Assembly (NCBI RefSeq): GCF_003334335.1
Contig: NZ_QOWQ01000007.1
Reading direction: 5' to 3' (one strand)
DNA: 64,000 nt
Source: Escherichia coli
GTDB taxonomy: Bacteria > Pseudomonadota > Gammaproteobacteria > Enterobacterales > Enterobacteriaceae
Position numbers and translations under genes: made by a program. The notes beneath the pieces were generated by a model. That model was not told where the DNA came from, did no database searches, and worked only from the letters and a program-made list of their open reading frames with translations. Below, in pieces: positions 34,458-53,689 of the stretch. The stretch's first letter is position 1, and every line of letters begins with the position of its first letter.

Positions 34458-35387
34458 ATGAAACCACTGCTGGATGTGTTGATGATCCTCGATGCCTTAG
34501 AAAAAGAAGGCAGTTTTGCGGCGGCGTCGGCCAAACTCTATAAGACGCCGTCCGCTCTGAGTTACACCGTTCACAAGCTGGAAAGCGACCTTAATATTCA
34601 ATTGCTTGATCGTAGCGGTCACCGCGCTAAATTCACCCGTACCGGAAAAATGTTATTAGAGAAAGGGCGGGAAGTTCTGCATACCGTGCGAGAACTGGAA
34701 AAGCAGGCGATCAAACTGCATGAAGGCTGGGAAAACGAGCTGGTGATTGGCGTGGACGACACGTTTCCTTTTTCTCTGCTTGCGCCACTGATTGAAGCTT
34801 TTTATCAACATCATAGCGTGACGCGCCTGAAGTTTATCAATGGCGTACTCGGTGGTTCCTGGGATGCCCTGACTCAGGGGCGAGCGGATATTATTGTTGG
34901 CGCGATGCATGAGCCACCATCTTCCAGTGAGTTTGGTTTTTCACGGTTGGGCGATCTGGAACAAGTCTTTGCGGTCGCGCCTCATCATCCGTTAGCCCTG
35001 GAAGAAGAGCCGTTAAATCGTCGTATTATTAAGCGATATCGGGCGATTGTGGTGGGGGATACTGCGCAGGCAGGCGCTTCTACGGCCTCACAACTTCTCG
35101 ACGAACAAGAAGCCATTACCGTTTTCGATTTTAAAACCAAGCTGGAGCTGCAAATTAGCGGCCTCGGCTGCGGCTATTTACCCCGTTATCTGGCGCAACG
35201 TTTTCTCGATAGTGGCGCGTTAATCGAGAAGAAAGTGGTCGCCCAAACTCTCTTTGAACCCGTCTGGATTGGCTGGAATGAACAGACCGCAGGGCTTGCC
35301 AGCGGCTGGTGGCGGGATGAAATTTTAGCAAATAGTGCGATCGCCGGTGTTTATGCAAAATCTGATGACGGAAAATCAGCCATTTAA
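34458..35387 (+). CDS. yeeY: LysR-family transcriptional regulator
   Basis: N-terminal HTH (LDALEKEGSFAAASAKLYKTPSALSYTVHKLE); ~309 aa from the internal ATG. Confidence 0.88.
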   Translation: MKPLLDVLMILDALEKEGSFAAASAKLYKTPSALSYTVHKLESDLNIQLLDRSGHRAKFTRTGKMLLEKGREVLHTVRELEKQAIKLHEGWENELVIGVDDTFPFSLLAPLIEAFYQHHSVTRLKFINGVLGGSWDALTQGRADIIVGAMHEPPSSSEFGFSRLGDLEQVFAVAPHHPLALEEEPLNRRIIKRYRAIVVGDTAQAGASTASQLLDEQEAITVFDFKTKLELQISGLGCGYLPRYLAQRFLDSGALIEKKVVAQTLFEPVWIGWNEQTAGLASGWWRDEILANSAIAGVYAKSDDGKSAI

Positions 35388-35653
35388 AGAAAAATTATTA
35401 TGACAAGCCTCTCATTCTCTTGTCATTTCCCCCCCATTTAGGCACAATGCGCCGCTGTCAAAAAATGACTAAAAACCGACGTTTCATCAGCGTCGGTTAT
35501 TTTTTGCTTCAAACCAATCATTCATACCAAGAGGCCGGGCTTCGTACCGGATAGATATTTACTAAAAATCGACAGTTGTTGTCGCTGAGGAATCCAAAAA
35601 AATGGGGCAATTTTTTGCTTACGCGACGGTTATCACCGTAAAGGAGAATGACC

Positions 35654-37012
35654 ATGTCGCATAACGTTACTCCAAACACCTCTCGCGTGGAATTGCGTAA
35701 AACGCTTACGTTAGTTCCGGTTGTAATGATGGGTCTTGCCTATATGCAGCCGATGACGCTGTTTGATACTTTTGGTATCGTTTCAGGCCTCACGGATGGT
35801 CATGTGCCGACAGCCTATGCGTTCGCATTGATTGCGATCCTGTTTACGGCTCTGAGCTACGGGAAGCTGGTTCGCCGCTATCCTTCTGCTGGCTCTGCAT
35901 ATACTTACGCCCAGAAATCCATTAGCCCGACTGTCGGCTTTATGGTGGGTTGGTCTTCTCTGCTCGACTATCTGTTCGCGCCGATGATCAACATTCTGCT
36001 GGCGAAAATCTATTTTGAAGCTCTGGTGCCTTCCATCCCATCGTGGATGTTTGTGGTGGCGCTGGTGGCCTTTATGACCGCCTTTAACCTGCGTAGTCTG
36101 AAATCCGTAGCGAACTTCAACACTGTAATCGTCGTGTTGCAGGTAGTGCTGATTGCGGTGATTCTGGGCATGGTTGTTTATGGCGTATTTGAAGGTGAAG
36201 GCGCTGGTACGCTGGCGAGCACTCGTCCGTTCTGGTCTGGCGATGCGCATGTTATCCCGATGATTACCGGGGCGACAATCCTGTGCTTCTCCTTTACCGG
36301 CTTTGACGGCATCAGCAACCTGTCGGAAGAAACCAAAGATGCAGAGCGCGTGATCCCGCGTGCGATTTTCCTGACCGCGCTGATTGGCGGCATGATCTTC
36401 ATCTTTGCAACTTACTTCCTGCAGCTGTACTTCCCGGATATCTCTCGCTTTAAAGATCCGGATGCGTCACAGCCTGAAATCATGCTGTATGTTGCGGGTA
36501 AAGCGTTCCAGGTTGGCGCGCTGATCTTCTCCACCATTACCGTACTGGCGTCCGGTATGGCGGCGCACGCAGGCGTAGCGCGTCTGATGTACGTAATGGG
36601 TCGTGACGGCGTATTCCCGAAAAGCTTCTTCGGTTATGTACACCCGAAATGGCGTACTCCGGCAATGAACATCATCCTGGTTGGCGCGATTGCCTTGCTG
36701 GCAATCAACTTCGACCTGGTAATGGCTACGGCGCTGATCAACTTTGGTGCGTTGGTGGCGTTCACCTTCGTTAACCTGTCGGTCATCTCGCAGTTCTGGA
36801 TCCGTGAGAAGCGTAACAAGACGCTGAAAGATCACTTCCAGTATCTGTTCCTGCCGATGTGTGGTGCGCTGACCGTTGGTGCGCTGTGGGTTAACCTGGA
36901 AGAAAGCTCAATGGTTCTGGGTCTGATCTGGGCGGCTATCGGTCTGATTTACCTGGCTTGTGTCACCAAGAGCTTCCGTAACCCGGTTCCGCAGTACGAA
37001 GACGTAGCATAA
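35654..37012 (+). CDS. plaP: Putrescine importer (APC family amino acid/polyamine permease)
   Basis: 452 aa, 12-TM APC-type permease; synteny with yeeF/plaP. Confidence 0.9.
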
Positions 37013-37032
37013 TCATCTTTTCTAATAATAAA

Positions 37033-37067
37033 CCGGAGTCGAATGAATATTTGGCTCCGGTTTTTTT
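37033..37067 (+). terminator. Rho-independent terminator after plaP
   Basis: ccggag...ctccgg hairpin followed by a T7 run. Confidence 0.7.
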
Positions 37068-37190
37068 ATTCTTTGTTATCGAAATCCTCATTAATAACCA
37101 TTTGTTCTAATTTAGAGAATTTGGTTATTGGTCTGCATTCCACCAGTCATGAATAATTTCCCTATTAACATTCATCTGGTTAATTAATTT

Positions 37191-38249
37191 ATGTTTTCAA
37201 TGATATTAAGTGGGCTAATTTGTGGTGCTCTGCTGGGATTTGTCATGCAGCGTGGGCGTTTTTGCCTGACAGGTGGTTTTCGCGATATGTATATCGCGAA
37301 AAATAATCGCATGTTTTACGCCTTGCTGATTGCAATTTCGGTACAAAGCGTGGGGGTTTTTGCGTTAATTCAGGCGGGCCTACTGACTTACGAAGCCGGG
37401 GCGTTCCCGTGGCTTGGTACTGTTATAGGTGGGTATATCTTCGGGCTGGGAATTGTTCTGGCGGGTGGATGTGCCACCGGGACCTGGTATCGCGCGGGTG
37501 AGGGATTGATCGGCAGTTGGATCGCGCTTTTCACTTATATGGTGATGAGTGCGGTGATGCGTTCTCCACATGCCAGTGGTTTAAATCAAACCTTGCAGCA
37601 CTACAGTACTGAACATAACTCTATTGCTGAGACTTTTAATTTGTCTGTGTGGCCGTTGGTTACCGTTTTGCTGGTGATAACGCTCTGGGTGGTGATGAAA
37701 GAGTTGAAGAAGCCAAAACTCAAAGTCGCGACCTTACCGCCGCGCCGAACCGGGATCGCTCATATTCTGTTTGAAAAACGCTGGCATCCCTTTGTCACTG
37801 CTGTACTCATCGGTTTGATTGCGCTTTTAGCCTGGCCCCTGAGTGAAGCAACCGGACGCATGTTTGGGTTAGGAATCACTTCCCCAACGGCCAATATTCT
37901 GCAATTTCTGGTCGCGGGTGACGTGAAATACATTAACTGGGGCGTTTTCCTGGTGTTAGGGATCTTCGTGGGGTCATTTATTGCAGCCAAAGCGAGCCGT
38001 GAGTTCCGCGTTCGCGCAGCTGATGCACAAACAACATTACGTAGCGGGTTAGGTGGTGTACTGATGGGCTTCGGTGCCAGTATTGCAGGTGGTTGCTCTA
38101 TCGGTAATGGACTGGTTATGACTGCAATGATGACCTGGCAGGGCTGGATTGGCCTTGTATTTATGATTCTCGGAGTCTGGACTGCGTCCTGGCTTGTGTA
38201 TGTTCGACCGCAGCGTAAGGCGCGACTGGCAACTGCTGCGGCAAATTAA
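37191..38249 (+). CDS. yeeE: Thiosulfate/sulfur-compound transporter (YeeE/YedE family)
   Basis: 352 aa membrane protein with an internal duplicated domain; followed by the TusA-like yeeD. Confidence 0.9.
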   Translation: MFSMILSGLICGALLGFVMQRGRFCLTGGFRDMYIAKNNRMFYALLIAISVQSVGVFALIQAGLLTYEAGAFPWLGTVIGGYIFGLGIVLAGGCATGTWYRAGEGLIGSWIALFTYMVMSAVMRSPHASGLNQTLQHYSTEHNSIAETFNLSVWPLVTVLLVITLWVVMKELKKPKLKVATLPPRRTGIAHILFEKRWHPFVTAVLIGLIALLAWPLSEATGRMFGLGITSPTANILQFLVAGDVKYINWGVFLVLGIFVGSFIAAKASREFRVRAADAQTTLRSGLGGVLMGFGASIAGGCSIGNGLVMTAMMTWQGWIGLVFMILGVWTASWLVYVRPQRKARLATAAAN

Positions 38250-38262
38250 GTAAGGTGTAAAG

Positions 38263-38490
38263 ATGGCGATTAAAAAGCTGGATGTGGTGACGCAGGTCTG
38301 TCCGTTTCCACTCATAGAAGCAAAAGCAGCACTGGCAGAAATGGCCAGCGGCGATGAGTTGGTAATTGAGTTTGATTGCACCCAGGCAACTGAAGCAATC
38401 CCACAGTGGGCGGCAGAAGAAGGACATGCCATCACCGATTATCAGCAGATTGGCGATGCAGCGTGGAGCATCACCGTTCAAAAAGCCTGA
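38263..38490 (+). CDS. yeeD: TusA-like sulfurtransferase
   Basis: 75 aa with a CPFP motif (VCPFPLIEAKAAL). Confidence 0.9.
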   Translation: MAIKKLDVVTQVCPFPLIEAKAALAEMASGDELVIEFDCTQATEAIPQWAAEEGHAITDYQQIGDAAWSITVQKA

Positions 38491-38501
38491 CTCAACATTG
38501 T

Positions 38502-38525
38502 CCTCCGCCGTACCAGCGGCGGAGG
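38502..38525. terminator. GC-rich hairpin between convergent yeeD and sbcB (possible bidirectional terminator)
   Basis: cctccgccg-tacca-gcggcggagg; no strong T-run on either side, so the terminator role is uncertain. Confidence 0.4.
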
Positions 38526-38532
38526 CTTCAAA

Positions 38533-39960
38533 TTAGACGATCTCTTCCGCGTACTGCCAAAGCGCTTTTAACAGCGCCACTTTCTCTTTGTCATCGGCAT
38601 ATTGTTGTGCCAGCATCTGCAATTCATCTGCATAACCCTGTAAAAACTCTGGCGTGAAGACCTGGCGGCGGTGCTCCAGCCAGCGTTGCTGCTCGGCATA
38701 ATCCAGCGTCCCCGGGAAGTTGCGCGCCCGATAATTGAACAACAGCTTTTCAATCCGTTTATCGACAAAAGTGATATCCAGTGCCGGTAAATTACGCGGC
38801 TCGGTTTCCAGCACAATTTTCATTGCTGCACGATCGGCGTCACTGAAAAAGCCGTTATAAAGCTGTGCATCCACGTTATCTGAAGGCGTAAACGGTTCGG
38901 CTTCCGCGAATATCGCCACCACTTTTTCGCGCACTTGCGGATTTTCACGCAGAATTTTCAGGTTATCGAGGCAATGCTGACGATTAATTCCCAGTCGGTC
39001 GGCATCTTCCGGGCGTAGCGTATTCGCCTGGGCCAGCACCGGACATTTATTGATATGCACCAGCTTAACCGGAACGGCGGCGTTATCGCCAAGATCGGTT
39101 TTTGCGGTATATAAACGCTCGCGCAATGTGTCGCTATCCAGTTCCAGTAATGGCGAAATGTCTCCTGCCAAATCCACCATAATTACGGCATTGCGATTTT
39201 CAGGATGCCACGCCAGCGGTGCCACCCAGCTGGTATTGCCGCGCCATGCTCCAAACATTCCGGAAACGTGCACCAGGGGTTTCATCTGCGGAACATCAAT
39301 CAACGCCATCAGTTTGTGTTTATTACGATGGGTAAAGAGATAATCAAACAGGCGTGGCTGACGCGTTTTTACCAGCTTTGCCATCGCAATAGTGGCGTAC
39401 ACATCAGCCATCGCATCGTGGGCGTTGCTATGTTCAATACCATTCGCTTTGGTTAAATGCTCAAGGCGAAAGCTCGGTAGACCGTCATCATTTTCAGGCC
39501 AGTTTATTCCTTCCGGGCGCAGGGCATAACAGGCACGCATAACATCCAACAAATCCCAGCGCGAGTTATCATGCTGCCAGCTCCAGGCGTAAGGATCGTA
39601 GAAATTACGATAAAAAACGTTGCGTGTGACTTCGTCGTCGAAACGCACATTGTTGTAGCCCAGAATACAGGTCTTCGGTACGGTAAAAAGCGAGTGAATA
39701 CGGGCGGCAAACGCGGCTTCGTTTTCTCCTTTCGCCCGTGCTTCCTGCGGGGTAATACCGGTAATTAATACTGCTCCAGGCTGGGGTAAATAGTCATCCG
39801 CGGGCTTGCAGTAAAAGACTTCGGGTTCGCCGATGACATTGAATTCGCTATCGGTGCGAATGGCTGCGAACTGTGCAGGGCGATCTAACGCGGGGTGCGT
39901 GCCAAAGGTTTCGTAATCGTGAAACAAAAAGGTAGATTGTTGCTTACCGTCATTCATCAT
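38533..39960 (-). CDS. sbcB: Exodeoxyribonuclease I
   Basis: MMNDGKQQSTFLFHDYETFGTHPALDRPAQFAAIRTD...; 475 aa from the internal Met. Confidence 0.95.
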   Translation of the reverse strand: MMNDGKQQSTFLFHDYETFGTHPALDRPAQFAAIRTDSEFNVIGEPEVFYCKPADDYLPQPGAVLITGITPQEARAKGENEAAFAARIHSLFTVPKTCILGYNNVRFDDEVTRNVFYRNFYDPYAWSWQHDNSRWDLLDVMRACYALRPEGINWPENDDGLPSFRLEHLTKANGIEHSNAHDAMADVYATIAMAKLVKTRQPRLFDYLFTHRNKHKLMALIDVPQMKPLVHVSGMFGAWRGNTSWVAPLAWHPENRNAVIMVDLAGDISPLLELDSDTLRERLYTAKTDLGDNAAVPVKLVHINKCPVLAQANTLRPEDADRLGINRQHCLDNLKILRENPQVREKVVAIFAEAEPFTPSDNVDAQLYNGFFSDADRAAMKIVLETEPRNLPALDITFVDKRIEKLLFNYRARNFPGTLDYAEQQRWLEHRRQVFTPEFLQGYADELQMLAQQYADDKEKVALLKALWQYAEEIV

Positions 39961-40168
39961 TAGGTTAAATCCGTTATTTCTGCTGTCTGCCAGAGTATCA
40001 AATATCACCGTGCTAATCAGCTTTAGCGCCACAATTTGGCAGCGAGTGGCAACAGATCATGTCAGATAAAAATGAGAGGGTAGTCACATTTTCTTGCACT
40101 TTATTCCAGCCAGTTCATAAGTATTTCCGTAAAAAGAACAGCTATTTGAAACTCCTGAGGGTTTGCTG

Positions 40169-41335
40169 TTGAAACGCCGTCTTATTATTGCTGCTTCTTT
40201 GTTCGTTTTTAACTTATCGTCTGGTTTTGCGGCGGATAACATTCCTTTTTCACCTCAGCCTCCAGAGATTCATGCCGGGTCCTGGGTATTGATGGATTAC
40301 ACCACCGGTCAGATCCTCACCGCGGGTAATGAGCATCAACAGCGCAATCCCGCCAGCCTGACAAAGCTGATGACGGGTTATGTCGTGGATCGCGCTATCG
40401 ATAGTCATCGCATTACGCCAGACGATATTGTCACCGTGGGGCGCGATGCGTGGGCGAAAGATAATCCGGTGTTTGTCGGTTCTTCACTGATGTTTTTGAA
40501 AGAGGGCGATCGCGTATCGGTACGTGATTTAAGCCGTGGTTTAATTGTGGATTCCGGAAATGACGCTTGTGTTGCTCTGGCTGACTATATTGCCGGTGGG
40601 CAACGGCAGTTTGTTGAAATGATGAACAACTATGCCGAGAAGCTGCATCTCAAGGATACGCATTTTGAAACAGTGCATGGTCTGGATGCACCTGGCCAGC
40701 ATAGCTCGGCTTATGATTTAGCTGTGCTTTCTCGCGCTATCATCCACGGCGAGCCCGAGTTTTATCATATGTACAGTGAGAAAAGTCTCACCTGGAACGG
40801 TATCACCCAGCAAAACCGTAACGGGTTGTTGTGGGATAAAACCATGAATGTTGACGGCCTGAAAACGGGTCATACTTCTGGTGCCGGGTTTAATCTCATT
40901 GCTTCGGCTGTAGATGGGCAGCGTCGTCTCATTGCAGTGGTAATGGGGGCTGACAGTGCAAAAGGTCGTGAGGAAGAGGCAAGAAAATTACTGCGTTGGG
41001 GGCAACAAAACTTTACTACGGTGCAAATTTTGCACCGTGGGAAAAAGGTCGGAACGGAACGCATCTGGTATGGCGATAAAGAAAATATCGACCTGGGAAC
41101 GGAACAAGAGTTCTGGATGGTGCTACCGAAAGCCGAAATTCCACATATCAAAGCCAAATATACCCTTGATGGTAAAGAGCTCACCGCGCCAATTAGCGCC
41201 CATCAGCGGGTAGGGGAAATTGAACTTTACGACCGTGATAAACAGGTGGCGCACTGGCCGCTGGTTACCCTGGAATCTGTCGGGGAAGGCGGCATGTTTT
41301 CCCGCCTGAGTGATTATTTCCACCATAAGGCCTGA
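40169..41335 (+). CDS. dacD: D-alanyl-D-alanine carboxypeptidase (PBP6b)
   Basis: Signal peptide, SxxK motif (ASLTK); apparent TTG start at 40169 gives 388 aa. Confidence 0.9.
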   Translation: MKRRLIIAASLFVFNLSSGFAADNIPFSPQPPEIHAGSWVLMDYTTGQILTAGNEHQQRNPASLTKLMTGYVVDRAIDSHRITPDDIVTVGRDAWAKDNPVFVGSSLMFLKEGDRVSVRDLSRGLIVDSGNDACVALADYIAGGQRQFVEMMNNYAEKLHLKDTHFETVHGLDAPGQHSSAYDLAVLSRAIIHGEPEFYHMYSEKSLTWNGITQQNRNGLLWDKTMNVDGLKTGHTSGAGFNLIASAVDGQRRLIAVVMGADSAKGREEEARKLLRWGQQNFTTVQILHRGKKVGTERIWYGDKENIDLGTEQEFWMVLPKAEIPHIKAKYTLDGKELTAPISAHQRVGEIELYDRDKQVAHWPLVTLESVGEGGMFSRLSDYFHHKA

Positions 41336-41419
41336 CCTTTCTTTTGCAGCAGACTGGCAGGAGTGCGAGTCTGCTCGCATAATCAACACTCATTCCTTGT
41401 GGTTTTAATATTGCAACTA

Positions 41420-41439
41420 TACTGTATATAAAAACAGTG
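41420..41439 (+). promoter_or_regulatory. LexA box (SOS operator) in the sbmC promoter
   Basis: tACTGTATATAaAaACAGTg matches the CTGT-N8-ACAG LexA consensus, 15 nt upstream of the sbmC ATG. Confidence 0.8.
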
Positions 41440-41453
41440 TTAATGGAGGCGTC

Positions 41454-41927
41454 ATGAACTACGAGATTAAGCAGGAAGATAAACGTACCGTTGCAGGTTT
41501 CCATCTCGTTGGCCCGTGGGAGCAGACGGTAAAGAAAGGTTTTGAGCAGTTGATGATGTGGGTAGATAACAAAAATATTGTGCCGAAGGAGTGGGTTGCT
41601 GTCTATTACGACAATCCAGATGAAACACCCGCCGAAAAATTACGCTGCGACACCGTCGTGACGGTACCGAATAACTTTACGCTCCCCGAAAACAGTGAGG
41701 GCGTCATTCTGACAGAAATTTCAGGTGGTCAGTATGCGGTTGCGGTGGCTCGTGTAGTCGGTGATGATTTTGCTAAACCTTGGTATCAGTTCTTTAATAG
41801 CCTCTTGCAGGACAGTGCTTATGAAATGTTACCAAAGCCCTGCTTCGAGGTTTATTTGAACAATGGCGCGGAAGATGGGTACTGGGATATCGAAATGTAT
41901 GTTGCGGTGCAGCCAAAACATCACTAA
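41454..41927 (+). CDS. sbmC: DNA gyrase inhibitor (GyrI/SbmC)
   Basis: 157 aa; [37 protein letters not shown]... Confidence 0.93.
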
Positions 41928-42125
41928 TTCATCTCAGGGCGGTGTGTTAACGCGATGACCACTCTTTTTTTTGAAAGCGAAAAGAGTAAGATGCGCCTTT
42001 CAATTTTTTCGCTCCTGCCGGGAAATTACACTGTTCCCGGTTTGTCCGTCGGATAATTCAGAGGCGCGCCTTCTGGCCGACAGATGAGTTATGAGCGCTT
42101 TTAATCTTCATTACGGAGTTTCTGC

Positions 42126-43184
42126 GTGCGTGCCGATAAGTCATTAAGCCCGTTTGAAATCCGGGTATACCGCCATTACCGCATTGTGCATGGTACTCGG
42201 GTCGCGCTGGCATTCCTGCTCACTTTTCTCATTATCCGCCTGTTTACTATCCCGGAAAGTACCTGGCCGCTGGTCACCATGGTGGTGATTATGGGGCCAA
42301 TCTCGTTCTGGGGTAACGTTGTCCCTCGCGCCTTCGAACGTATTGGCGGTACGGTGTTGGGTTCGATATTAGGTCTTATCGCTCTGCAACTGGAGTTAAT
42401 CTCGTTACCGCTGATGTTAGTCTGGTGCGCGGCGGCTATGTTTCTTTGCGGTTGGCTGGCGCTGGGCAAGAAACCGTATCAAGGATTATTGATTGGGGTG
42501 ACGCTGGCAATTGTTGTTGGTTCCCCGACAGGTGAAATTGATACGGCGTTATGGCGAAGCGGCGATGTGATCCTCGGCTCTTTACTGGCAATGTTGTTTA
42601 CCGGTATCTGGCCACAACGGGCGTTCATCCACTGGCGCATTCAACTGGCGAAAAGTCTGACCGAGTATAATCGGGTCTATCAATCTGCATTCTCACCGAA
42701 CTTACTCGAACGCCCACGTCTGGAAAGCCATCTACAAAAACTCCTGACCGATGCCGTGAAAATGCGTGGGCTGATTGCGCCCGCCAGCAAAGAAACCCGT
42801 ATTCCAAAATCGATATATGAAGGTATCCAGACCATTAACCGCAATCTGGTTTGTATGCTGGAGTTGCAAATCAATGCGTACTGGGCCACGCGCCCCAGCC
42901 ATTTCGTGTTATTGAACGCGCAAAAACTTCGTGATACCCAGCACATGATGCAGCAAATACTGCTGAGCCTTGTTCATGCGTTGTACGAAGGTAATCCGCA
43001 GCCGGTTTTTGCCAATACGGAAAAATTGAACGATGCTGTGGAAGAGCTGCGTCAGTTGCTCAATAACCACCATGACCTGAAGGTTGTGGAAACACCAATC
43101 TATGGTTATGTGTGGCTGAACATGGAAACGGCACATCAGCTTGAGTTGCTATCGAATCTGATTTGCCGGGCCTTGCGCAAATAA
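42126..43184 (+). CDS. yeeA: Inner membrane protein YeeA (FUSC-like)
   Basis: 352 aa, GTG start; hydrophobic N-terminal half and soluble C-terminal half; synteny. Confidence 0.85.
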   Translation: MRADKSLSPFEIRVYRHYRIVHGTRVALAFLLTFLIIRLFTIPESTWPLVTMVVIMGPISFWGNVVPRAFERIGGTVLGSILGLIALQLELISLPLMLVWCAAAMFLCGWLALGKKPYQGLLIGVTLAIVVGSPTGEIDTALWRSGDVILGSLLAMLFTGIWPQRAFIHWRIQLAKSLTEYNRVYQSAFSPNLLERPRLESHLQKLLTDAVKMRGLIAPASKETRIPKSIYEGIQTINRNLVCMLELQINAYWATRPSHFVLLNAQKLRDTQHMMQQILLSLVHALYEGNPQPVFANTEKLNDAVEELRQLLNNHHDLKVVETPIYGYVWLNMETAHQLELLSNLICRALRK

Positions 43185-43355
43185 TTCCTGAACTTCAGAA
43201 TCATCTTGCTGCTGCTTCGATTCAGCAAGGATAAAGGGTATGATAGTGAAAAGGGATAAAAGCATTGTCATCTGCGGCAGCTATGAGTAATGTTGGCCCT
43301 AACGAATAGCGGTTGCTTAAACGAATCCGACTCTCACATTATCAGGGGTATAAAA

Positions 43356-43685
43356 ATGGAAACTACCAAGCCTTCATTCCAGGACGTACTGGAATTTGTT
43401 CGTCTGTTCCGTCGTAAGAACAAACTGCAACGTGAAATTCAGGACGTTGAGAAAAAGATCCGTGACAACCAGAAGCGCGTCCTGCTGTTGGACAACCTGA
43501 GCGATTACATCAAGCCGGGGATGAGCGTTGAAGCAATCCAGGGCATCATCGCCAGCATGAAAGGTGACTATGAAGATCGTGTTGACGATTACATCATCAA
43601 AAATGCCGAGCTCTCCAAAGAACGCCGTGATATCTCCAAAAAGCTGAAAGCTATGGGCGAAATGAAAAACGGCGAAGCGAAGTAA
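43356..43685 (+). CDS. yeeX: UPF0265/DUF496 family protein
   Basis: [41 protein letters not shown]... 109 aa from the internal ATG. Confidence 0.88.
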
Positions 43686-43699
43686 TTCCTGTTTTATTC

Positions 43700-43740
43700 A
43701 ATGAGGGTTGCCCGGCAACCCTCATTGCTCATTGATTCTT
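43700..43740 (+). terminator. Hairpin terminator after yeeX
   Basis: aatgagggttgcc-cgg-caaccctcatt hairpin followed by T-rich sequence. Confidence 0.5.
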
Positions 43741-43785
43741 TTCTGTGTATCAAAGTCATCATTCCCATCTGATAACCTGTCGAAA

Positions 43786-44061
43786 TTAGCGACAGACTTC
43801 TTCTATATGCAGCAAGGCAAAAAGTTCTGCAACTCTATTGTTATTAACCGCACTGGTTACTAACACGTTGTGCGCTCCAGCTTCCCGTAACCAACATTTC
43901 ACCAAAGATATTTGTTCCATGTTGGCTAAATCTGCTTTGGTTACTACTCCAATGACCGGGCGATTCATTGACGAGGTAAAGCCTGGCGAAAAAGGTGACC
44001 ACGGTGCGTCCGCATTAAGCACCAGCGCGATAATGTCTGCTTCGCAGGCACTGACCAACAA
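43786..44061 (-). pseudogene. yoeF: EutP/PduV-family GTPase, C-terminal fragment (yoeF-like remnant); N-terminal P-loop part missing
   Basis: 91 aa ORF with ...[12 protein letters not shown]... typical of EutP/PduV C-terminal halves; no P-loop-encoding sequence found upstream in any frame. Confidence 0.55.
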
Positions 44062-44420
44062 TGCACTGTAGAGGCTGCGGTTTTATCGGTGAGGAGTGGC
44101 AGCAAGATTTCCAGCCTCTTGATGGTGGGCCTGTGCAATCGTTATCAGATGCGTATAGCGATTATTCAGTGCTGCTATTGATAGCAGCTGAAAGCGAGAT
44201 ATCCGTACCAGAATGGCTCGCTCATTCTGAGGGAACGACGGTAATTTTGATTGCAGAACACAATGCCCGTTTGCTGACTGGTCCGGCTGGTGGGGCTGTA
44301 GCATTAATCCATTATCTGAATGAAATCTGTCATTCCAGAGAAACCGCTAGCAATGACGCATTTTGTCGGACGTTAACACGAGGAAGTCTGGCTATTCCGC
44401 AATGCCATCTTCTTTCGTAA
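44061..44420 (+). CDS. Hypothetical 119 aa ORF at the CP4-44 empty site; may be non-coding
   Basis: Only the open reading frame itself; no recognisable domain or convincing RBS. Confidence 0.2.
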
Positions 44421-44553
44421 TGGATTGAGAATGCTGGATTTTTAATTATATTACGCGCAGTATTAATCGCGTAAATGTTTTGCGGTCAGCAACGGTGGGG
44501 GATCCATTGTTCTGTTCAATGAATACCATCATACAATTGAATCAGGAGTCGGT

Positions 44554-45099
44554 ATGATGATTTTGGTGACGGGGGGCGCACGGAGCGGGAAGAGTCGCCA
44601 TGCAGAGGCGCTTATTGGGGACTCTTCACAGGTTCTGTATATCGCCACCTCACAAATCCTTGATGATGAGATGGCTGCACGGATAGAACATCATCGGCAA
44701 GGCCGCCCGGCGCACTGGCGCACGGTGGAGCGTTGGCAACATCTTGATGAATTAATTCATGCAGACATTAACCCGCATGAGGCTGTGTTGCTGGAATGCG
44801 TTACCACCATGGTGACTAATCTGTTGTTTGATTATGGCGGCGATAAAGACCCTAATGAATGGGATTATCAGGCGATGGAACAGGCGATTAATGCTGAGAT
44901 TCAGTCGTTGATTGCTGCCTGCCAACGTTGTCCCGCAAAGGTTGTATTAGTGACTAACGAAGTGGGAATGGGGATTGTGCCGGAGAGTCGTCTGGCACGA
45001 CATTTTCGTGATATTGCCGGGCGGGTAAATCAGCAGCTGGCCGCTGCGGCAAATGAAGTATGGCTGGTGGTTTCGGGTATTGGAGTAAAAATCAAATGA
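44554..45099 (+). CDS. cobU: Adenosylcobinamide kinase / adenosylcobinamide-phosphate guanylyltransferase
   Basis: 181 aa; P-loop [18 protein letters not shown]. Confidence 0.95.
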
Positions 45100-45839
45100 G
45101 TAAATTATTTTGGGCGATGCTCTCTTTTATTACGCGTCTGCCTGTACCGCGTCGCTGGTCCCAGGGACTGGATTTCGAGCATTATTCTCGCGGTATTATT
45201 ACTTTTCCTTTAATTGGATTATTGCTTGGCGCGATTAGCGGGCTGGTCTTCATGGTGCTGCAGGCATGGTGTGGCGTACCACTGGCGGCACTGTTTAGCG
45301 TACTTGTGCTGGCGCTGATGACCGGGGGATTCCACCTGGACGGCCTCGCCGATACCTGTGATGGCGTATTTTCTGCACGTAGCCGCGATCGCATGTTGGA
45401 AATCATGCGTGATAGCCGTTTAGGCACCCACGGCGGTCTGGCATTGATTTTTGTTGTACTGGCAAAGATTCTGGTATTAAGCGAGTTGGCTCTGCGTGGC
45501 GAACCGATCCTTGCATCGCTGGCGGCAGCATGTGCGGTCAGCCGCGGGACTGCCGCATTATTGATGTATCGTCATCGTTATGCCCGGGAAGAAGGGCTTG
45601 GCAATGTGTTCATTGGCAAAATTGATGGGCGACAAACCTGCGTCACACTCGGCTTAGCCGCTATTTTTGCTGCCGTATTATTGCCTGGTATGCATGGTGT
45701 GGCTGCTATGGTGGTGACGATGGTGGCGATTTTCATCCTCGGTCAGCTTCTCAAACGTACGCTGGGCGGGCAAACCGGCGATACGCTGGGAGCTGCTATA
45801 GAGCTTGGTGAACTGGTCTTCCTGCTGGCACTGCTATAA
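45096..45839 (+). CDS. cobS: Adenosylcobinamide-GDP ribazoletransferase (cobalamin synthase)
   Basis: [18 protein letters not shown]...; 247 aa membrane protein; ATGA overlap with cobU. Confidence 0.93.
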
Positions 45840-45850
45840 AGAGACGTGAC

Positions 45851-46930
45851 ATGCAAACACTTGCCGATTTACTGAATACGATCCCTGCCATCGATCCTGC
45901 CGCTATGTCGCGTGCACAACGGCATATCGACGGGTTACTCAAACCTGTTGGTAGCCTGGGAAGGCTGGAGGCGCTTGCCATACAACTGGCAGGAATGCCG
46001 GGGTTGAATGGCGTTCCGCATGTGGGCAAAAAAGCGGTACTGGTCATGTGTGCCGATCACGGCGTCTGGGAGGAAGGGGTCGCTATTTCCCCAAAAGAAG
46101 TGACAGCCATTCAGGCTGAAAATATGACCCGCGGAACAACCGGCGTGTATGTGCTGGCAGCACAAGCGGGCGCTAACGTCCACGTAATTGATGTTGGTAT
46201 TGATACTGCTGAGCCTATCCCCGGGCTTATCAACATGCGTGTTGCTCGAGGTAGTGGCAATATTGCTTCAGCTCCGGCAATGAGTCGCCATCAGGCTGAA
46301 AAGTTGCTTTTGGACGTCATATGTTATACGCGGGAGCTGGCAAAAAACGGTGTTACGCTGTTTGGTGTAGGTGAACTGGGGATGGCAAACACGACACCGG
46401 CCGCAGCAATAGTCAGCACAATCACTGGCCGGGATCCTGAAGAAGTGGTTGGGATTGGCGCAAACCTGCCGACAGATAAACTGGCTAATAAAATTGATGT
46501 TGTGCGCCGGGCGATTACGTTGAATCAACCAAATCCTCAGGATGGCGTTGATGTCCTGGCAAAAGTGGGTGGATTTGATTTGGTCGGAATGGCTGGCGTG
46601 ATGTTAGGCGCTGCTTCCTGCGGTTTACCCGTGTTGCTGGATGGATTTCTTTCTTATGCTGCCGCGCTCGCAGCCTGCCAGATGTCTCCTGCAATCAAAC
46701 CGTATCTCATTCCTTCTCACCTGTCGGCAGAAAAAGGGGCGCGTATTGCGCTGTCGCATTTGGGGCTGGAGCCTTATCTCAATATGGAGATGCGTTTAGG
46801 TGAGGGGAGTGGCGCAGCTCTGGCGATGCCCATCATCGAAGCTGCCTGTGCGATATATAACAACATGGGCGAACTTGCTGCCAGTAATATTGTTCTACCG
46901 GGGAATACGACTTCTGATTTGAACAGTTAA
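45851..46930 (+). CDS. cobT: Nicotinate-nucleotide--dimethylbenzimidazole phosphoribosyltransferase
   Basis: 359 aa; [32 protein letters not shown]... Confidence 0.95.
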
Positions 46931-46991
46931 AAACGAAAAGTCTGATAAAAGCTATACTTAACGGATAGCTTTCGCGACTTAGGAAAGGGAC

Positions 46992-47918
46992 ATGATGCGT
47001 CGTGTAAATATTCTTTGCTCATTTGCTCTGCTTTTTGCCAGCCATACTAGCCTGGCGGTAACTTATCCATTACCTCCAGAGGGTAGCCGTTTAGTGGGGC
47101 AGTCGTATACTGTAACTGTTCCTGATCACAATACCCAGCCGCTGGAGACTTTTGCCGCACAAAACGGGCAAGGGTTAAGTAACATGCTGGAAGCGAACCC
47201 GGGTGCTGATGTTTTCTTGCCGAAGTCTGGCTCGCAACTTACCATTCCGCAGCAACTGATTTTGCCCGCCACTGTTCGTAAAGGGATTGTGGTTAACGTC
47301 GCTGAGATGCGTCTTTATTACTACCCGCCAGACAGTAATACTGTGGAAGTCTTTCCTATTGGTATCGGCCAGGCTGGGCGAGAAACCCCGCGTAACTGGG
47401 TGACTACCGTTGAACGTAAACAAGAAGCTCCAACCTGGACGCCAACGCCGAACACTCGGCGCGAATATGCGAAACGAGGGGAGAGTTTGCCCGCATTTGT
47501 TCCTGCGGGTCCCGATAATCCCATGGGGCTGTACGCGATTTATATTGGCAGGTTGTATGCCATCCATGGTACCAATGCCAATTTTGGTATTGGGCTCCGG
47601 GTAAGTCAGGGCTGTATTCGTCTGCGCAATGACGATATCAAATATCTGTTTGATAATGTTCCTGTTGGAACGCGTGTGCAAATTATCGACCAGCCAGTAA
47701 AATACACCACTGAACCAGATGGCTCGAACTGGCTGGAAGTTCATGAGCCGCTGTCGCGCAATCGTGCAGAATATGAGTCTGACCGAAAAGTACCATTGCC
47801 GGTAACCCCATCTTTGCGGGCGTTTATCAACGGGCAAGAAGTTGATGTAAATCGCGCAAATGCTGCGTTGCAACGTCGATCGGGAATGCCTGTGAATATC
47901 AACCGTAACGGATTTTGA
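46992..47918 (+). CDS. ldtA: L,D-transpeptidase (ErfK/LdtA)
   Basis: Signal peptide plus YkuD-type L,D-transpeptidase domain (...[20 protein letters not shown]...). Confidence 0.92.
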
Positions 47919-48003
47919 CATTCAAAACGTCTGGTTTTTCGGTCTGTGTAAGCATTACGTCATGCAAAACTGGTTGTTTCGAATCATACAAATCATAATT
48001 TTC

Positions 48004-48079: not shown

Positions 48080-49057
48080 ATGGAAAAGAGAATGACGAAA
48101 CAGAAAAAAAACAGCCGCTGGCAGGGTTACGATCCTCGCTACATATACTCGCTCGTGGTCAGACGTTATTTTGCGGATATGAAAACCAAGATTGAGATTG
48201 CAGAGGAGCTTGGCGTTTCCCGCTTTAAAGTTGCCAGATTGATCGATGAGGCGATCGAACAGGATTACGTGAGGTTTATCTTCCCTAAGCAGCAAGCGAT
48301 GGATGAAGAAATCGCCAGTAATTTACGGAAAAAATTTCATCTGGAAGATGCAATTGTTCTTTCAGTTGCTGAATCCTGGACGACGCAAGAAGAACTCAAT
48401 CACAAATTGGGTGAAGTCACCGCTGAATATCTTATGCAATCTCTTCATGAAGGTATGAAAGTGGGGATCGCCTGGGGGCGTGTATTATCAAGCACGGTCA
48501 GTAAGTTGAGCAAGTTGCCTCCTTTAGACGTTGTGCAGTTATCTGGCGTACATCCGGGGATTGAGTTCAGTCAAGGGCCAATAGATCTTATTCATAAGAT
48601 CGCTGCCATTTCGCAGGGAAAAGCGCACCCAATGTACGTGCCGATGTGGGTCGATGACGAAGAGCTTGCTGCCAGACTGGCAGGTGATCCTGCGGTATTA
48701 GATACACAGCAATATTACTCACAGTTGGATGTGGTTATCACCGGGATAGGTGACTGGAAATCAGGTTCTTCAAGCTTGTGTAAAATATTTCCGGATACCT
48801 GGTGCGAAGCGTTGTTTCAACAAGATATCGCTGCGGATGTGTGTATCTCGTTGGTCAACAGGGAAGGGAAGATTCTTCATAGTCCTATTGAACGTCTGGG
48901 ATTTGGCATTTCGACGGATCAACTACAAAAAGCCAAAAAAGTGATTGGTGTCGCTGGAGGAGAAGAAAAATATGAAGGCATCCTTGCTTCGCTGAAATCC
49001 GGACTTTTGAATGTCTTAATTACTGATTTTGATACGGCCATTAAACTTCTGGATTAA
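48080..49057 (+). CDS. SorC/DeoR-type transcriptional regulator (N-terminal HTH, C-terminal sugar-phosphate-binding domain)
   Basis: 325 aa; HTH region IEIAEELGVSRFKVARLIDEA followed by a SorC-like effector domain; start could also be the ATG at 48092. Confidence 0.8.
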   Translation: MEKRMTKQKKNSRWQGYDPRYIYSLVVRRYFADMKTKIEIAEELGVSRFKVARLIDEAIEQDYVRFIFPKQQAMDEEIASNLRKKFHLEDAIVLSVAESWTTQEELNHKLGEVTAEYLMQSLHEGMKVGIAWGRVLSSTVSKLSKLPPLDVVQLSGVHPGIEFSQGPIDLIHKIAAISQGKAHPMYVPMWVDDEELAARLAGDPAVLDTQQYYSQLDVVITGIGDWKSGSSSLCKIFPDTWCEALFQQDIAADVCISLVNREGKILHSPIERLGFGISTDQLQKAKKVIGVAGGEEKYEGILASLKSGLLNVLITDFDTAIKLLD

Positions 49058-49075
49058 TAGCCATATCAGTGAAGA

Positions 49076-49106
49076 AAGGGCAGTACCGCTGATTCTGCCC
49101 TTTTAA
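49076..49106. terminator. Bidirectional terminator between the convergent regulator gene and the PTS operon
   Basis: gggcag-taccgctgatt-ctgccc hairpin followed by tttt. Confidence 0.6.
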
Positions 49107-49108
49107 TT

Positions 49109-49567
49109 TCAGGATGCTTCGAGCGTATCCTCTACATATTTAGCCACGCGCGTTGCAGGTAAATTGCGGCAAGTCTCAACAAAGGCGTTATCCTGAAACA
49201 GTGTGAATAAACGACGCAATATCGACATATGTTGATCACTGGTGGCAAATGCCAGGTTAAACATAATGCTACAATCAACTGTTAAATCAGCATCTTCCAT
49301 TTGCCCGAAAGTGACATCATTGGCGAAACGAACAATACTGATACTGTTGACATTTACCAGCGTGTAATCGGCATGGGGAATGGCGATACCCTGACCGTTT
49401 GCCATCATTAGTCCTGTCGGATAGCTTTTTTCACGTTTCAGACAGGCGTCAATGTATTCTGCAGTGATATAGCCTTTTTCCAATAATTGCGTACCAGCAA
49501 AGGTGATCGCCGTTTGATAGTCACTGATGCTGTTATCAACATCATTCACCAGAATTTCAAATTTCAT
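49109..49567 (-). CDS. PTS enzyme IIA component (galactitol-family PTS)
   Basis: 152 aa; phosphorylatable His context GQGIAIPHADYTL typical of PTS EIIA type 2. Confidence 0.85.
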   Translation of the reverse strand: MKFEILVNDVDNSISDYQTAITFAGTQLLEKGYITAEYIDACLKREKSYPTGLMMANGQGIAIPHADYTLVNVNSISIVRFANDVTFGQMEDADLTVDCSIMFNLAFATSDQHMSILRRLFTLFQDNAFVETCRNLPATRVAKYVEDTLEAS

Positions 49568-49577
49568 TGCACACCTG

Positions 49578-49862
49578 TTATTTCAACATCTCTTCTTTAA
49601 CTGCAGCGAAAATCTCATCTTCGCCCAGACCAGTCAGTAATCCAGCGCCAACGATGACACGAGTAGTAATGGCCGGGTTATCGAGTTTGGTCGATGAAAC
49701 CACCAGGTCATAGCTGTTGAAGGTATCGCTGGTGCATGCCATTAACGAAGATTTATCGACTTGCGCTTCAATTTTCTCTTCTTTCAGGAAGTCCTGCAGT
49801 ACAGAGACCATGATGGAAGATGAGGCAATTCCGTTTCCGCAAACTACTAAGATTTTTTTCAT
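49578..49862 (-). CDS. PTS enzyme IIB component (GatB-like)
   Basis: 94 aa; MKKILVVCGNGIASSSIM with the active-site Cys near the N-terminus. Confidence 0.85.
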   Translation of the reverse strand: MKKILVVCGNGIASSSIMVSVLQDFLKEEKIEAQVDKSSLMACTSDTFNSYDLVVSSTKLDNPAITTRVIVGAGLLTGLGEDEIFAAVKEEMLK

Positions 49863-49885
49863 TTGATTATTCCTCTGTAAAAGAT

Positions 49886-51256
49886 TTAAAGCGCTTTTTC
49901 CAAATCCGTTTCAATCTGGCGACGTGATTTTTGTTTAATTAAGTATCCAATAGATAACAAAAGGATACCTGCCATCAAATAGCCAATGATTCCAACATGG
50001 CTCAGGGCGGCAAACAGACCAGTAAATGGATTCGCTGACGGGTTAAGTGAAGAGTACATTACGCTGGCATCCGGGTTTGTACCAAATTTCTGGAAGACTT
50101 CGTTGGTAGCCGGTGCCATCCACGACGCAATATACAGACCACCACCGAACAATATGATCGAGGTCACCCAGGTGCGAATAATGTTGCCATTAAAAACAGG
50201 TACCATGCAGGCAATGAAAAACACAAACTGAGAGAGGTCACCCAGTGGCATAACGCGGTTGCCGGGCAAGATCACGGCGAGGATCACAATCACCGGGATC
50301 AGCAATAATGCAGGGGCGATAACTGATGGATGGCCCACAATCAGAGCAGTGTCCATACCAACAGTGATTTGACGATCCGGGAACCGTTTGACCAGTTTTT
50401 TGCGTGCTACGTTGGAAAGCGGAACAAGTCCTTCCATCATGATAGAGGTCATACGTGGTAACAGAAGCATGACCGCAGCCAGATACATCCCTAACTGTAG
50501 GCTGGCGATTATGGTGTGGTATGGGGATTTCCAGCCATAACCACAAAAGCCCAATAAAATACCAATAATAAAACCAACCATAGTTGGATCGCCGAGAATG
50601 CCAAACCGTTTCTGAATAGTTTCGGCGGTCACATTCAGATTACGGAAGCCTGGGATGCGATCATAAATCCAGTTGAATGGATAAGCGAAAAGTAAGTAGG
50701 TATTGGCAACCGGGTGAGAGATCGCAACACCTTTTGGCAGGTTAAAGAATTTTTCGTTATTTTTAGCACCAAGATCGGCAGCGATCAGCGCCCAGACATG
50801 GAATAGCGCGGCGGTCAATGCGCCATACAGGAAGCTACCAGAATAGACGCCAACAATTGCCCCCATTGACGCATTTTGATGAAGATTGAAGACATCAACG
50901 TTAACACAGTCAGTCAGGCGGGCGACCAGCATTGCAATATTTACCGCAACACAGAGGGGAATAATGATAGCGCCCATGCTGGAGCCAAATCCCATAACCG
51001 CAGTCGCTGCGCCACCAACATCGATGGCACTGAGCGAGGAACCTGTTGCTTCTGCTAATCCGGTGACTGCCGGTTGCATTTTTTCCAGCATCAGTTTGAT
51101 GGTCATGGTTAACGCAATGAAACCAATGCCGACTTTGATGGCAGACGAGATACATTCTGAAAGAGGACGGCCAAGTATCTTCATCAGTACCAGAAAGATG
51201 ACCGGGATAAATATAAAATTTCCCAGATCGTTTATAAATTGCGTGATCAGTTCCAT
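49886..51256 (-). CDS. PTS enzyme IIC permease (GatC/SgcC family)
   Basis: 456 aa; shares blocks with GatC as I recall it (IGIGF, VNVDVFN, IQKRFG, MEGLVP, LIVGHPSV, PGNRVMPLGDL). Confidence 0.85.
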   Translation of the reverse strand: MELITQFINDLGNFIFIPVIFLVLMKILGRPLSECISSAIKVGIGFIALTMTIKLMLEKMQPAVTGLAEATGSSLSAIDVGGAATAVMGFGSSMGAIIIPLCVAVNIAMLVARLTDCVNVDVFNLHQNASMGAIVGVYSGSFLYGALTAALFHVWALIAADLGAKNNEKFFNLPKGVAISHPVANTYLLFAYPFNWIYDRIPGFRNLNVTAETIQKRFGILGDPTMVGFIIGILLGFCGYGWKSPYHTIIASLQLGMYLAAVMLLLPRMTSIMMEGLVPLSNVARKKLVKRFPDRQITVGMDTALIVGHPSVIAPALLLIPVIVILAVILPGNRVMPLGDLSQFVFFIACMVPVFNGNIIRTWVTSIILFGGGLYIASWMAPATNEVFQKFGTNPDASVMYSSLNPSANPFTGLFAALSHVGIIGYLMAGILLLSIGYLIKQKSRRQIETDLEKAL

Positions 51257-51259
51257 ACA

Positions 51260-51796
51260 TTAACCCTCAGATTTTTCATCATCTGGTCGGAAACCCATAT
51301 TCCAGCGTACATCAGCGGGCTTAACCAGCAATGCATTATCGTTACGTTCAGCTTCTAGCAAGTTCTTTTTAGAATTTTCTCTGGCGGTGGTGAAGTCGAA
51401 TGGGTTATCCAACCATGCATCGACAATCATTTTGCTGTATTCGAGATCGTTGACCCGGCAACCCAGTCCAATAACTTGTGCGTTATTGCTGAGTCGCGCC
51501 CGCTTTGCGGAGTAGGGGTTAGTAACCGCAACGGCTCTTATGCCCCAGTGTTTGTTGATCTGACAAGTAAAGCCAATGCCAGTCCCACAAATGTAAATTC
51601 CCAGACGGCACTCATCGCGTTGAATAATGCCTGCCATTTCGTCGGCCAGACGCGCGAAGTTATTGACACCTTGTTCCTTACATGTGACGGGATCGTACAC
51701 GATCTCCATGTTTTTCTCTTCTATGAGGTATTTTTTTATCTCCTCTTTACGTGCAAAACCTACATCATCGCTTGCGATAGCAATCTTTGTTTTCAT
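51260..51796 (-). CDS. RpiB/LacA/LacB-family sugar-phosphate isomerase (ribose-5-P isomerase B / allose-6-P isomerase-like) with a C-terminal extension
   Basis: 178 aa; IYICGTGIGFTCQINK...IRAVAVTNPYSAKRARLSNNAQVIGLGCRV...KMIVDAWL aligns with E. coli RpiB blocks from memory; ~30 extra C-terminal residues. Confidence 0.8.
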   Translation of the reverse strand: MKTKIAIASDDVGFARKEEIKKYLIEEKNMEIVYDPVTCKEQGVNNFARLADEMAGIIQRDECRLGIYICGTGIGFTCQINKHWGIRAVAVTNPYSAKRARLSNNAQVIGLGCRVNDLEYSKMIVDAWLDNPFDFTTARENSKKNLLEAERNDNALLVKPADVRWNMGFRPDDEKSEG

Positions 51797-52144
51797 TTCA
51801 TTTTGCCTGTCGTTAAGTAACTAAAGCCAAGTATGCTGTTGGTAAATATTGGTTGTCAATTGAGATCTGAATCACAAAATTTATAACTAATTGATTTTAA
51901 TGGTATTAAAAACCAATAAAAACAAATAAAAAATAAATTAAGCCAATTGAGACAAATTGGGATTGTACAGTGGCGTTGTAATGAATAATAAAAACTCATT
52001 TATTATCAATCGGATATATGGTTTTTGAACTGTTGTCTTTATTGGGTTTATTTGTACTTTCCACTGTTAGTGTTTGTTTTTGTTTGCATCATCTGTGCTA
52101 TGCTTGGCGTTTTCTAAGATGGGTAATAGATTTCAGGAGGAAGG

Positions 52145-52900
52145 ATGTATCTGGTTGATGAAAGGCGAAAGTTAATACTTGAAGACTTAATGTCGGCAGG
52201 TACGGTCTATGTCAGTGATCTTGCACGAAAGTATGAAGTAACGTATGAGACCATCAGGAAAGATTTGACCCATCTTGAACAAAAAGGGCTGCTGATCAAA
52301 AGCCATGGTGGGGCGACTTTAAAGCAAAGGGCTATAGAGCATCCCTTTCAGGTCAGGGAAAAAGAAAATAACTCTTATAAGAAGGCGATAGCTCGTAAAG
52401 CGCTTGATTTCATTCCGCCTAATAGTTCGATGATTATCGGTACGGGCAGTACCACTTTTGAGCTGGCTAACCTGTTATGTATGAAGTCTGGGTTTAAAAT
52501 CTTCACAGATTCGCTCCCCGTTGCCAGTGTGTTGATTGAATCTGACAACCAGGTTTTTCTCTTTGGCGGCGAACTGCGTAGAAAGAGTTCCTCAGTGTTT
52601 GGGGGGTGGGCGGTATCTATGATCAACGATATACATGTTGATCTCTGTTTTATTGGAACCGACGGCTTTAGTAACATGACTGGTCCATCGACGCCTTCTT
52701 CTTCTGATGCGTTTTTGGATCGTACGATAATTTCGCACTCAGACAAAAAATATATCCTCGGTGATTACACCAAGTTTGAGCGCAGCAGTTTATTTAAGAT
52801 CTGCGACTGGTCGGAGATCACCGCCCTTATAACCAACGATCATGCCGACAAAGAGGGGATTGCCGAAGTCGCAAAATACACGTCAGTAATAACCTGTTAG
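52145..52900 (+). CDS. DeoR-family transcriptional regulator
   Basis: 251 aa; N-terminal HTH (RRKLILEDLMSAGTVYVSDLARKYEVTYETIRKDLTHLEQKGLL) and DeoR C-terminal sugar-phosphate sensor domain. Confidence 0.85.
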   Translation: MYLVDERRKLILEDLMSAGTVYVSDLARKYEVTYETIRKDLTHLEQKGLLIKSHGGATLKQRAIEHPFQVREKENNSYKKAIARKALDFIPPNSSMIIGTGSTTFELANLLCMKSGFKIFTDSLPVASVLIESDNQVFLFGGELRRKSSSVFGGWAVSMINDIHVDLCFIGTDGFSNMTGPSTPSSSDAFLDRTIISHSDKKYILGDYTKFERSSLFKICDWSEITALITNDHADKEGIAEVAKYTSVITC

Positions 52901-53065
52901 AACTCACTACGACACGCCTTCTCCCTTCGAATCAGCTTTGCCAAATGTAATCATTTCCCAATTATCAAGTGAGCATCCATGGCGATGCTTGCTTAGCGCC
53001 CTCTATTGAATACATCCTCTGCCTATTGCCAGTTTCAGTTACTTTTTTGCGAAGAAATCACGATT

Positions 53066-53204
53066 TGCTCATATGAGCATAAATACTGACGCCATTATGT
53101 GCTTTTTTGTGATCTGGATTTAATTTCTCAGATCTCGTTATTTATCCACAGGATCGTTGTGCTATAACTGCTCATATGAATATTGTTCAATGCTCATGTG
53201 AGCA
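53066..53204 (+). promoter_or_regulatory. Promoter/operator region of the second PTS operon with three copies of a TGCTCAT-type palindrome
   Basis: TGCTCATATGAGCA (53066-53079, perfect palindrome), TGCTCATATGAA (53169-53180), TGCTCATGTGAGCA (53191-53204), the last one ~10 nt upstream of the RBS. Confidence 0.5.
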
Positions 53205-53671: not shown

Positions 53672-53689
53672 TAAAAACTGGAGTTTATT

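Follow-up and report, generated by a model that had tools for sequence, protein, structure and literature searches.

The presence of the pdu genes varies among Escherichia coli strains, and their gain and loss by recombination have already been described (PMC9997745). In Salmonella bongori, the cob-pdu block has been lost at the corresponding locus, leaving only fragments of the terminal genes (PMC3158058). The intergenic site between cobU and yeeX (tmaR) of E. coli is also a recognized location of genomic islands, PAI-cobU having been described in strains CFT073, 536, UTI89, and others (PMC7545054). According to the annotation of K-12, CP4-44 is located at 2066020 to 2078748 between cobU and tmaR, contains IS5H and IS2F, and is bordered by yoeF, which abuts tmaR. 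A sequence-only reading of the DNA studied here had correctly stated that K-12 carries CP4-44 and an IS5 copy between yeeX and cobU.

We analyzed a 64,000-nucleotide stretch of E. coli DNA (the window) in which tmaR and cobU lie close together (Table 1). The end of tmaR and the start of cobU define a gap of exactly 868 bp, in agreement with the ~870 bp first noted. This gap occupies the same intergenic site as PAI-cobU and CP4-44, but alleles with these islands carry 13 to 43 kb of island DNA, whereas the window carries none. Unlike the scar of S. bongori, which retains fragments of cobT and pduX and has lost cobUST, the window retains cobUST, and its fragments are those of pduV and of a cbiG-derived open reading frame (cbiG'). 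Also closely related is the pdu+ locus of E. coli strains E24377A, JNE170426, and GN05505, which has the same flanks and two ends collinear with the two halves of the gap (~98.8% identity). In comparison to this locus, 17,254 bp are absent from the window, comprising pduV codons 1 to 49, pduU to pduA, pduF, pocR, the cobalamin riboswitch, and cbiG' codons 1 to 33/34. The gap is therefore an ordinary gene-loss scar. Its remnants and the variability of pdu are already known, and RefSeq already labels both remnants in strains with this allele.

Table 1. Features of the tmaR-cobU region (window positions unless stated otherwise)
Feature	Coordinates	Strand	Remarks
yeeA	42126-43184	+	Left of tmaR
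tmaR (= yeeX)	43356-43685	+	Left flank of the gap; annotated as tmaR at the same coordinates in strain 1506
Hairpin	43699-43727		Perfect 13-bp stem, 3-nt loop; self-inverted blast match
3' pduV remnant	43786-44084	-	Codons 50-147 and stop; N-terminal 49 codons deleted
280-bp segment absent from K-12-type alleles	43969-44248		CP4-44/PAI-cobU island there instead
119-aa ORF, chimera made by the deletion	44061-44420	+	ATG and first 7 codons antisense to pduV; rest is cbiG remnant in its original frame
Deletion junction	44080-44087		GTTTT (44080-44084), then ATC here versus GTT in pdu+ alleles
cbiG-derived remnant	44085-44420	+	Codons 34-145 and stop; parent is the 145-aa ORF between riboswitch and cobU
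Conserved spacer upstream of cobU	44421-44553	+	133 bp
cobU	44554-45099	+	Followed by cobS and cobT, also +
cobU, cobS, cobT, intact	44554-46930	+	Right flank of the gap
STnc230 (locus extracts)	4465-4548 (E. albertii); 4461-4544 and 4464-4547 (two other Escherichia)	-	
Intact cbiG' ORF (locus extracts)	19904-20341 (JNE170426); 6001-6435 (three other Escherichia)		

The sequence of the window is 100% identical to that of strain ECZP248 over positions 34000 to 44600 and 99.97% identical to that of strain 1506 from 39912 to 64000. TmaR (109 residues) does not differ from the TmaR protein of pdu+ E. coli (100% identity), and the CobU, CobS, and CobT products display 99.2 to 99.6% identity to their pdu+ counterparts. 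Two other variable regions were observed in the surroundings of the gap. Approximately 9.3 kb separate ldtA from a tRNA-Asn gene (window positions ~48090 to 57350), a region that encodes two PTS systems, rpe, hxlB, an SDR oxidoreductase, and two regulators, according to the annotation of strain 1506; in K-12, asnV immediately follows ldtA. Upstream of dacD, strain 1506 carries an ~40-kb prophage with a GtrA/glycosyltransferase O-antigen modification module. Window positions 1 to 39911 lack this prophage and contain the ordinary sbcB-plaP-dacD backbone instead.

In pdu+ strain JNE170426, the locus consists of tmaR, the pdu genes on the opposite strand (in the order pduV, U, T, S, Q, P, O, N, M, L, K, J, H, G, E, D, C, B, and A from the tmaR side), pduF, pocR, a cobalamin riboswitch (Rfam match, 107 bits), an ORF of 145 codons annotated as a hypothetical protein, and cobUST. 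E24377A and GN05505 have the same layout. Blast analyses revealed that window positions 43200 to 44084 align with positions 1867 to 2751 of the JNE170426 locus extract and that window positions 44080 to 45200 align with positions 20001 to 21121, in both cases with 98.8% identity. The alignments have 5 bp in common, GTTTT, which is present at both parental positions (extract positions 2747 to 2751 and 20001 to 20005) and only once in the window. Both parental sequences are known, a short identical run is found at the break points, and the two pdu+ segments explain every base of the gap, leaving no island-derived sequence. Since the matches to the two ends of the pdu+ locus meet in GTTTT, the gap is best explained by a microhomology-mediated deletion of 17,254 bp. 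We infer with high confidence that it is the nonfunctional scar of one such illegitimate event in a pdu+ E. coli ancestor.

The five deletion alleles that were aligned all have ATC after GTTTT, and this junction-specific triplet argues for a single origin. It differs at two positions from the GTT of the three pdu+ references. Filler bases or later mutations may thus be present at the exact break; alternatively, the sampled genomes may not include the true parental haplotype. Among alleles that share this junction, the divergence of the flanks reaches 6%, and the flanks have polymorphisms in common with different pdu+ alleles. This divergence may reflect age or later recombination with pdu+ alleles; we read it as probable recombination.

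The ancestor would have carried, in this order, tmaR, pduV back to pduA, pduF, pocR, the cobalamin riboswitch, the 145-codon cbiG-derived ORF, and cobUST. The deletion would have joined pduV codon 50 to approximately codon 34 of the cbiG-derived ORF at GTTTT. It would have removed the whole propanediol pathway, the activator PocR, the facilitator PduF, and the B12 riboswitch together with the upstream promoter region. The resulting head-to-head join would by chance have generated an open frame of 119 codons starting in antisense pduV. As a structure, the gap would do nothing; it would record a loss.

Comparison of the fragment next to tmaR with protein families corroborated the proposal that it is the C-terminal part of an EutP/PduV-type GTPase related to yoeF and encoded by the minus strand. 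The 98 residues encoded by positions 43786 to 44082 matched profile positions 49 to 140 (of 142) of TIGR02528 (EutP/PduV; E = 2.3e-26), and the fragment was 95% identical to residues 50 to 147 of the intact PduV of pdu+ E. coli (E = 2e-68). The match scored 92.7 bits, below the full-length cutoff of 138.35 bits, in comparison to 186.3 bits for the intact PduV of the pdu+ strain. The fragment lacks the N-terminal nucleotide-binding (P-loop) segment of the EutP/PduV family, which we take to lie in PduV residues 1 to 49. The missing N-terminal half, which the sequence-only reading had proposed to look for elsewhere in the genome, was sought with tblastn, and no match to these residues was obtained in the entire 64-kb window. 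RefSeq marks the fragment as "incomplete; missing N-terminus."

The hairpin located between the convergent tmaR and pduV is likely to be a shared transcript-end structure. Folding of RNA from positions 43680 to 43760 gave -23.3 kcal/mol (z = -4.5). A simple terminator scan did not call this hairpin, which has no U-run directly after it. Scanning positions 42000 to 46000 against Rfam (E ≤ 1) detected no riboswitch or other family in the gap, indicating that no riboswitch or small RNA remnant survived in it.

To establish the polarity of the change, one genome per GTDB species was scanned with TmaR as the query, and the loci were annotated by tblastn. In E. albertii, E. whittamii, and the GTDB representative of E. 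coli (E69), pduV is located ~100 bp from tmaR, at variance with the suggestion that the compact junction is the ancestral state. The distance is ~2.2 kb in Citrobacter, Salmonella arizonae/diarizonae, Pseudocitrobacter, and Phytobacter. In S. arizonae, the space between pduV and tmaR encodes propionate kinase PduW (874 bits) and a 300-residue ORF at the position expected for pduX, and the order pduV-pduW-pduX next to tmaR was found in Citrobacter and Salmonella. Since the Escherichia pdu operon ends at pduV beside tmaR, pduW and the ORF at the pduX position are lacking at the Escherichia locus. In E. albertii, E. marmotae, and Escherichia sp. E4736, pocR, the riboswitch, an ORF of 144 codons, and cobU and/or cobS are present in the same order as in pdu+ E. 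coli. The sharing of the tmaR-pduV and pocR-riboswitch-ORF-cob arrangements with other Escherichia species indicates that the pdu+ state is ancestral and that the window is derived. Thus, the ancestor of the genus was pdu+ and retained only the cbiG' ORF of its cbi genes. In Kluyvera, Trabulsiella, and Kosakonia cowanii, cobUST directly follows tmaR, with a gap of 100 to 200 bp.

The survey provided several additional observations. In some Kosakonia genomes and in Pseudocitrobacter faecalis, a cbiG homolog was found ~7.6 kb downstream of tmaR, and no pdu gene was detected in the flank. Across genera, the pattern is that of a cbi-pdu block inserted between tmaR and cobU. At the E. albertii locus, cobS was called, with no cobU or cobT, and the riboswitch and the 144-codon ORF are intact (extract positions 6435 to 6958 and beyond 7701); the salvage genes of this species may be decaying at the locus. 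In three Escherichia species, Rfam identified the enterobacterial small RNA STnc230 between pduF and pocR, and the deletion seen in the window also removed this feature.

To determine the distribution of the alleles, 5,426 complete E. coli genomes were searched by megablast with the gap as the query. Most genomes matched the gap in two separate places, and the match was contiguous in 202 of the 5,426. The exact junction of the window was present in 181 genomes (3.3%) and pduC in 642 (11.8%). The K-12-type boundary between pduV' and the island was found in 4,171 genomes (76.9%), and the K-12-type boundary between cbiG' and an IS4-family remnant was found in 3,729 (68.7%). On the cobU side, the B2 strain IMT5155 shares the boundary of K-12, an observation that fits with CP4-44 and the PAI-cobU of extraintestinal pathogenic (ExPEC) strains being versions of one old replacement.

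Other scars were also found. In EM22-18-53, an independent scar joins the equivalents of window positions 43962 and 44366, with a 7-bp overlap and a gap of 458 bp. Escherichia sp. MOD1-EC7003 has a different junction (44064 joined to 44279). Approximately 130 bp inside cobU are apparently missing from this strain. Escherichia sp. E1V33 has a 36-bp scrap of pduP between the remnants, and strain LR-33 has also lost cobUST. The independent scars of several strains indicate that loss of pdu at this locus is recurrent. Together with the description of PAI-cobU (PMC7545054), these rearrangements substantiate the remark that the region is a recombination hotspot.

We considered the possibility that the compact junction is an empty precursor into which an island of the CP4-44/PAI-cobU type was later inserted. 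The island of K-12 does sit between the same two remnants, at a locus known to receive islands (PMC7545054). The cobU-side boundary of K-12 abuts an IS4-family transposase remnant, and the K-12 state would be reached if an island inserted close to the junction and IS activity then trimmed 115 bp from pduV' and 169 bp from cbiG'. However, comparison of the region from 43200 to 45200 revealed that K-12 matches the window only over positions 43200 to 43968 and 44249 to 45200. The flanks of the island are not contiguous in the window, since they are separated by 280 bp, the window extending 115 bp further into pduV and 169 bp further into cbiG' than K-12 does. In K-12, these bases are replaced with 12,688 bp of island DNA. 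The same end points (gap query positions 283 and 564) were observed in most of the 5,426 genomes. The absence of this segment from K-12 indicates that the window is neither the K-12 site minus its prophage nor a scar of prophage loss.

The features of an attachment site were not found either. Alignment with K-12, which had been proposed as a means to define the att core, revealed no contiguous core, homology stopping at 43968 and resuming at 44249. The tRNA scan of positions 42000 to 48000 detected no tRNA gene, and the ends of the K-12 island share no direct repeat beyond chance (one common 7-mer, with ~1.4 expected). The notion of an unoccupied attachment site therefore found no support.

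Sequence divergence pointed in the same direction. Over window positions 44249 to 44365, identity was 83 to 84% with the island-type alleles (K-12 and IMT5155) and 96 to 98% with all pdu+ and deletion alleles. A foreign origin of the cbiG' tail of K-12 was envisaged based on its 83% identity and dropped, since much of the difference is accounted for by a 9-bp in-frame deletion and ~8% of private substitutions in the island-type tail. Near the junction, the window is in contrast 99 to 100% identical to an extant pdu+ allele. This suggests that the island allele may belong to an older lineage than the window allele; direct descent of the island allele from a pdu+ allele would be equally possible. 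Insertion into a preexisting compact junction is thus improbable.

The same comparison clarified the nature of yoeF. K-12 yoeF contains the same 3' remnant of pduV as the window, with the same orientation and at the same distance (~100 bp) from the tmaR stop codon. It retains the last 183 bp of pduV, versus 297 bp in the window, and K-12 has 12.7 kb of CP4-44 in place of part of the cbiG' remnant of the window. In the K-12 protein (YoeF; b4538; extract positions 16576 to 16932), the last 61 codons originate from pduV and the first 58 from the end of the CP4-44 island. Since the 183 bp of pduV are fused to 174 bp of island-end DNA, YoeF is itself encoded by a chimeric ORF.

On the cobU side, the 119-residue plus-strand ORF reported by the sequence-only reading does exist, but the statement that it has no recognizable features did not hold. 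Its residues 8 to 119 are a cbiG remnant, corresponding to residues 34 to 145 of the 145-residue parental ORF (95% identity; E = 5e-80). CbiG is a cobalt-precorrin-5A hydrolase. The parental ORF matched the N-terminal third of CbiG (NF004463; positions 1 to 125 of 351; E = 1.6e-19), with no match to the middle or C-terminal domains, and the shortened ORF of the window matched this profile weakly (E = 1.5e-4). The scores were 70.3 and 21.1 bits, respectively, for a full-length cutoff of 546. A Pfam scan of the parental ORF gave no match, and identification relied on NCBIfam instead. The homolog search performed with the parental ORF retrieved Escherichia and Shigella proteins only and did not reach full-length CbiG, while tblastn located a homolog at the cbiG position of the cbi operons of Kosakonia and Pseudocitrobacter (38 to 41% identity).

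Four species, E. coli, E. albertii, E. marmotae, and Escherichia sp. E4736, have the intact ORF, of 144 to 145 codons, between the riboswitch and cobU. In the five sequences that represent them, the start codon of the ORF is conserved, and so is a ribosome-binding site of the GGAG type. No frameshift or stop codon was observed despite at least 163 substitutions over the tree, whereas the frame stayed open in only ~1% of the runs of a random-substitution simulation. The between-species dN/dS ratios were 0.27 to 0.43, versus 0.02 to 0.14 for pocR, pduF, cobS, and cobU. We tentatively consider, as a possibility less likely than its alternatives, that selection maintains the intact ORF, because it encodes a small protein or because its translation as a leader lets riboswitch-controlled transcripts reach cobUST. 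If this were true, the window allele would be a natural knockout uncoupling cobUST from B12 and PocR control.

The conservation of the parent, together with a frame that is open in all five deletion alleles, could be taken to indicate that the 119-residue ORF is a genuine expressed gene for a shortened CbiG N-domain protein. Several lines of evidence make this very unlikely. The ORF lacks the best-conserved N-terminal 33 residues of its parent, the native start codon, and the GGAG-type ribosome-binding site, and inspection of the sequence preceding position 44061 identified no Shine-Dalgarno-like motif. Its own start codon is not conserved, ATG being replaced by GAG in two of the five alleles with the same junction. 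The pN/pS ratio of the ORF among deletion alleles was 0.71, in a range of 0.21 to 0.71 across E. coli alleles that is based on thin sampling (8 to 72 summed pairwise differences per class). Finally, the last 57 codons of the cbiG-derived ORF are all that ~77% of E. coli strains keep.

The last explanation, according to which the gap is the scar of an excised or deleted CP4-44-like prophage or island, draws only on the general plasticity of the site, as illustrated by the further deletion of an island-type allele in LR-33, and is hardly credible, since the 280-bp segment is absent from island-bearing alleles and could not be regenerated by removal of the island and since the gap contains no island-derived sequence.

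Returning to the deletion of 17,254 bp in a pdu+ ancestor, we examined the DNA left between the cbiG remnant and cobU. Among eight alleles, 4 of the 133 positions of this spacer (3.0%) were polymorphic, versus 12% for the pduV remnant and 8.7% for the cbiG remnant, a three- to fourfold difference. The spacer is also retained in K-12, and the promoter scan located in it the sole sigma-70-like site of the region (positions 44425 to 44452; TTGAGA-16-TATATT). The spacer is therefore likely to comprise the predicted proximal promoter and 5' untranslated region of cobUST. In the window, cobUST would presumably be transcribed only from this conserved region upstream of cobU and would no longer be controlled by B12 or PocR.

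A strain with this allele lacks the Pdu pathway, PduF, PocR, and the riboswitch and is predicted not to use 1,2-propanediol, while the cobUST genes for salvage of cobinamide to cobalamin are kept. These results correct a misreading of the cobU-yeeX region of K-12, the "prophage site" being the grave of a pdu/cbi locus and yoeF a pduV remnant. The locus offers a clean, datable series of independent gene-loss alleles: besides the pdu+ state and the deletion described here, it comprises replacement by the island and three or more further scars. These alleles could be useful as a marker for following recombination and tracing lineages in Escherichia.
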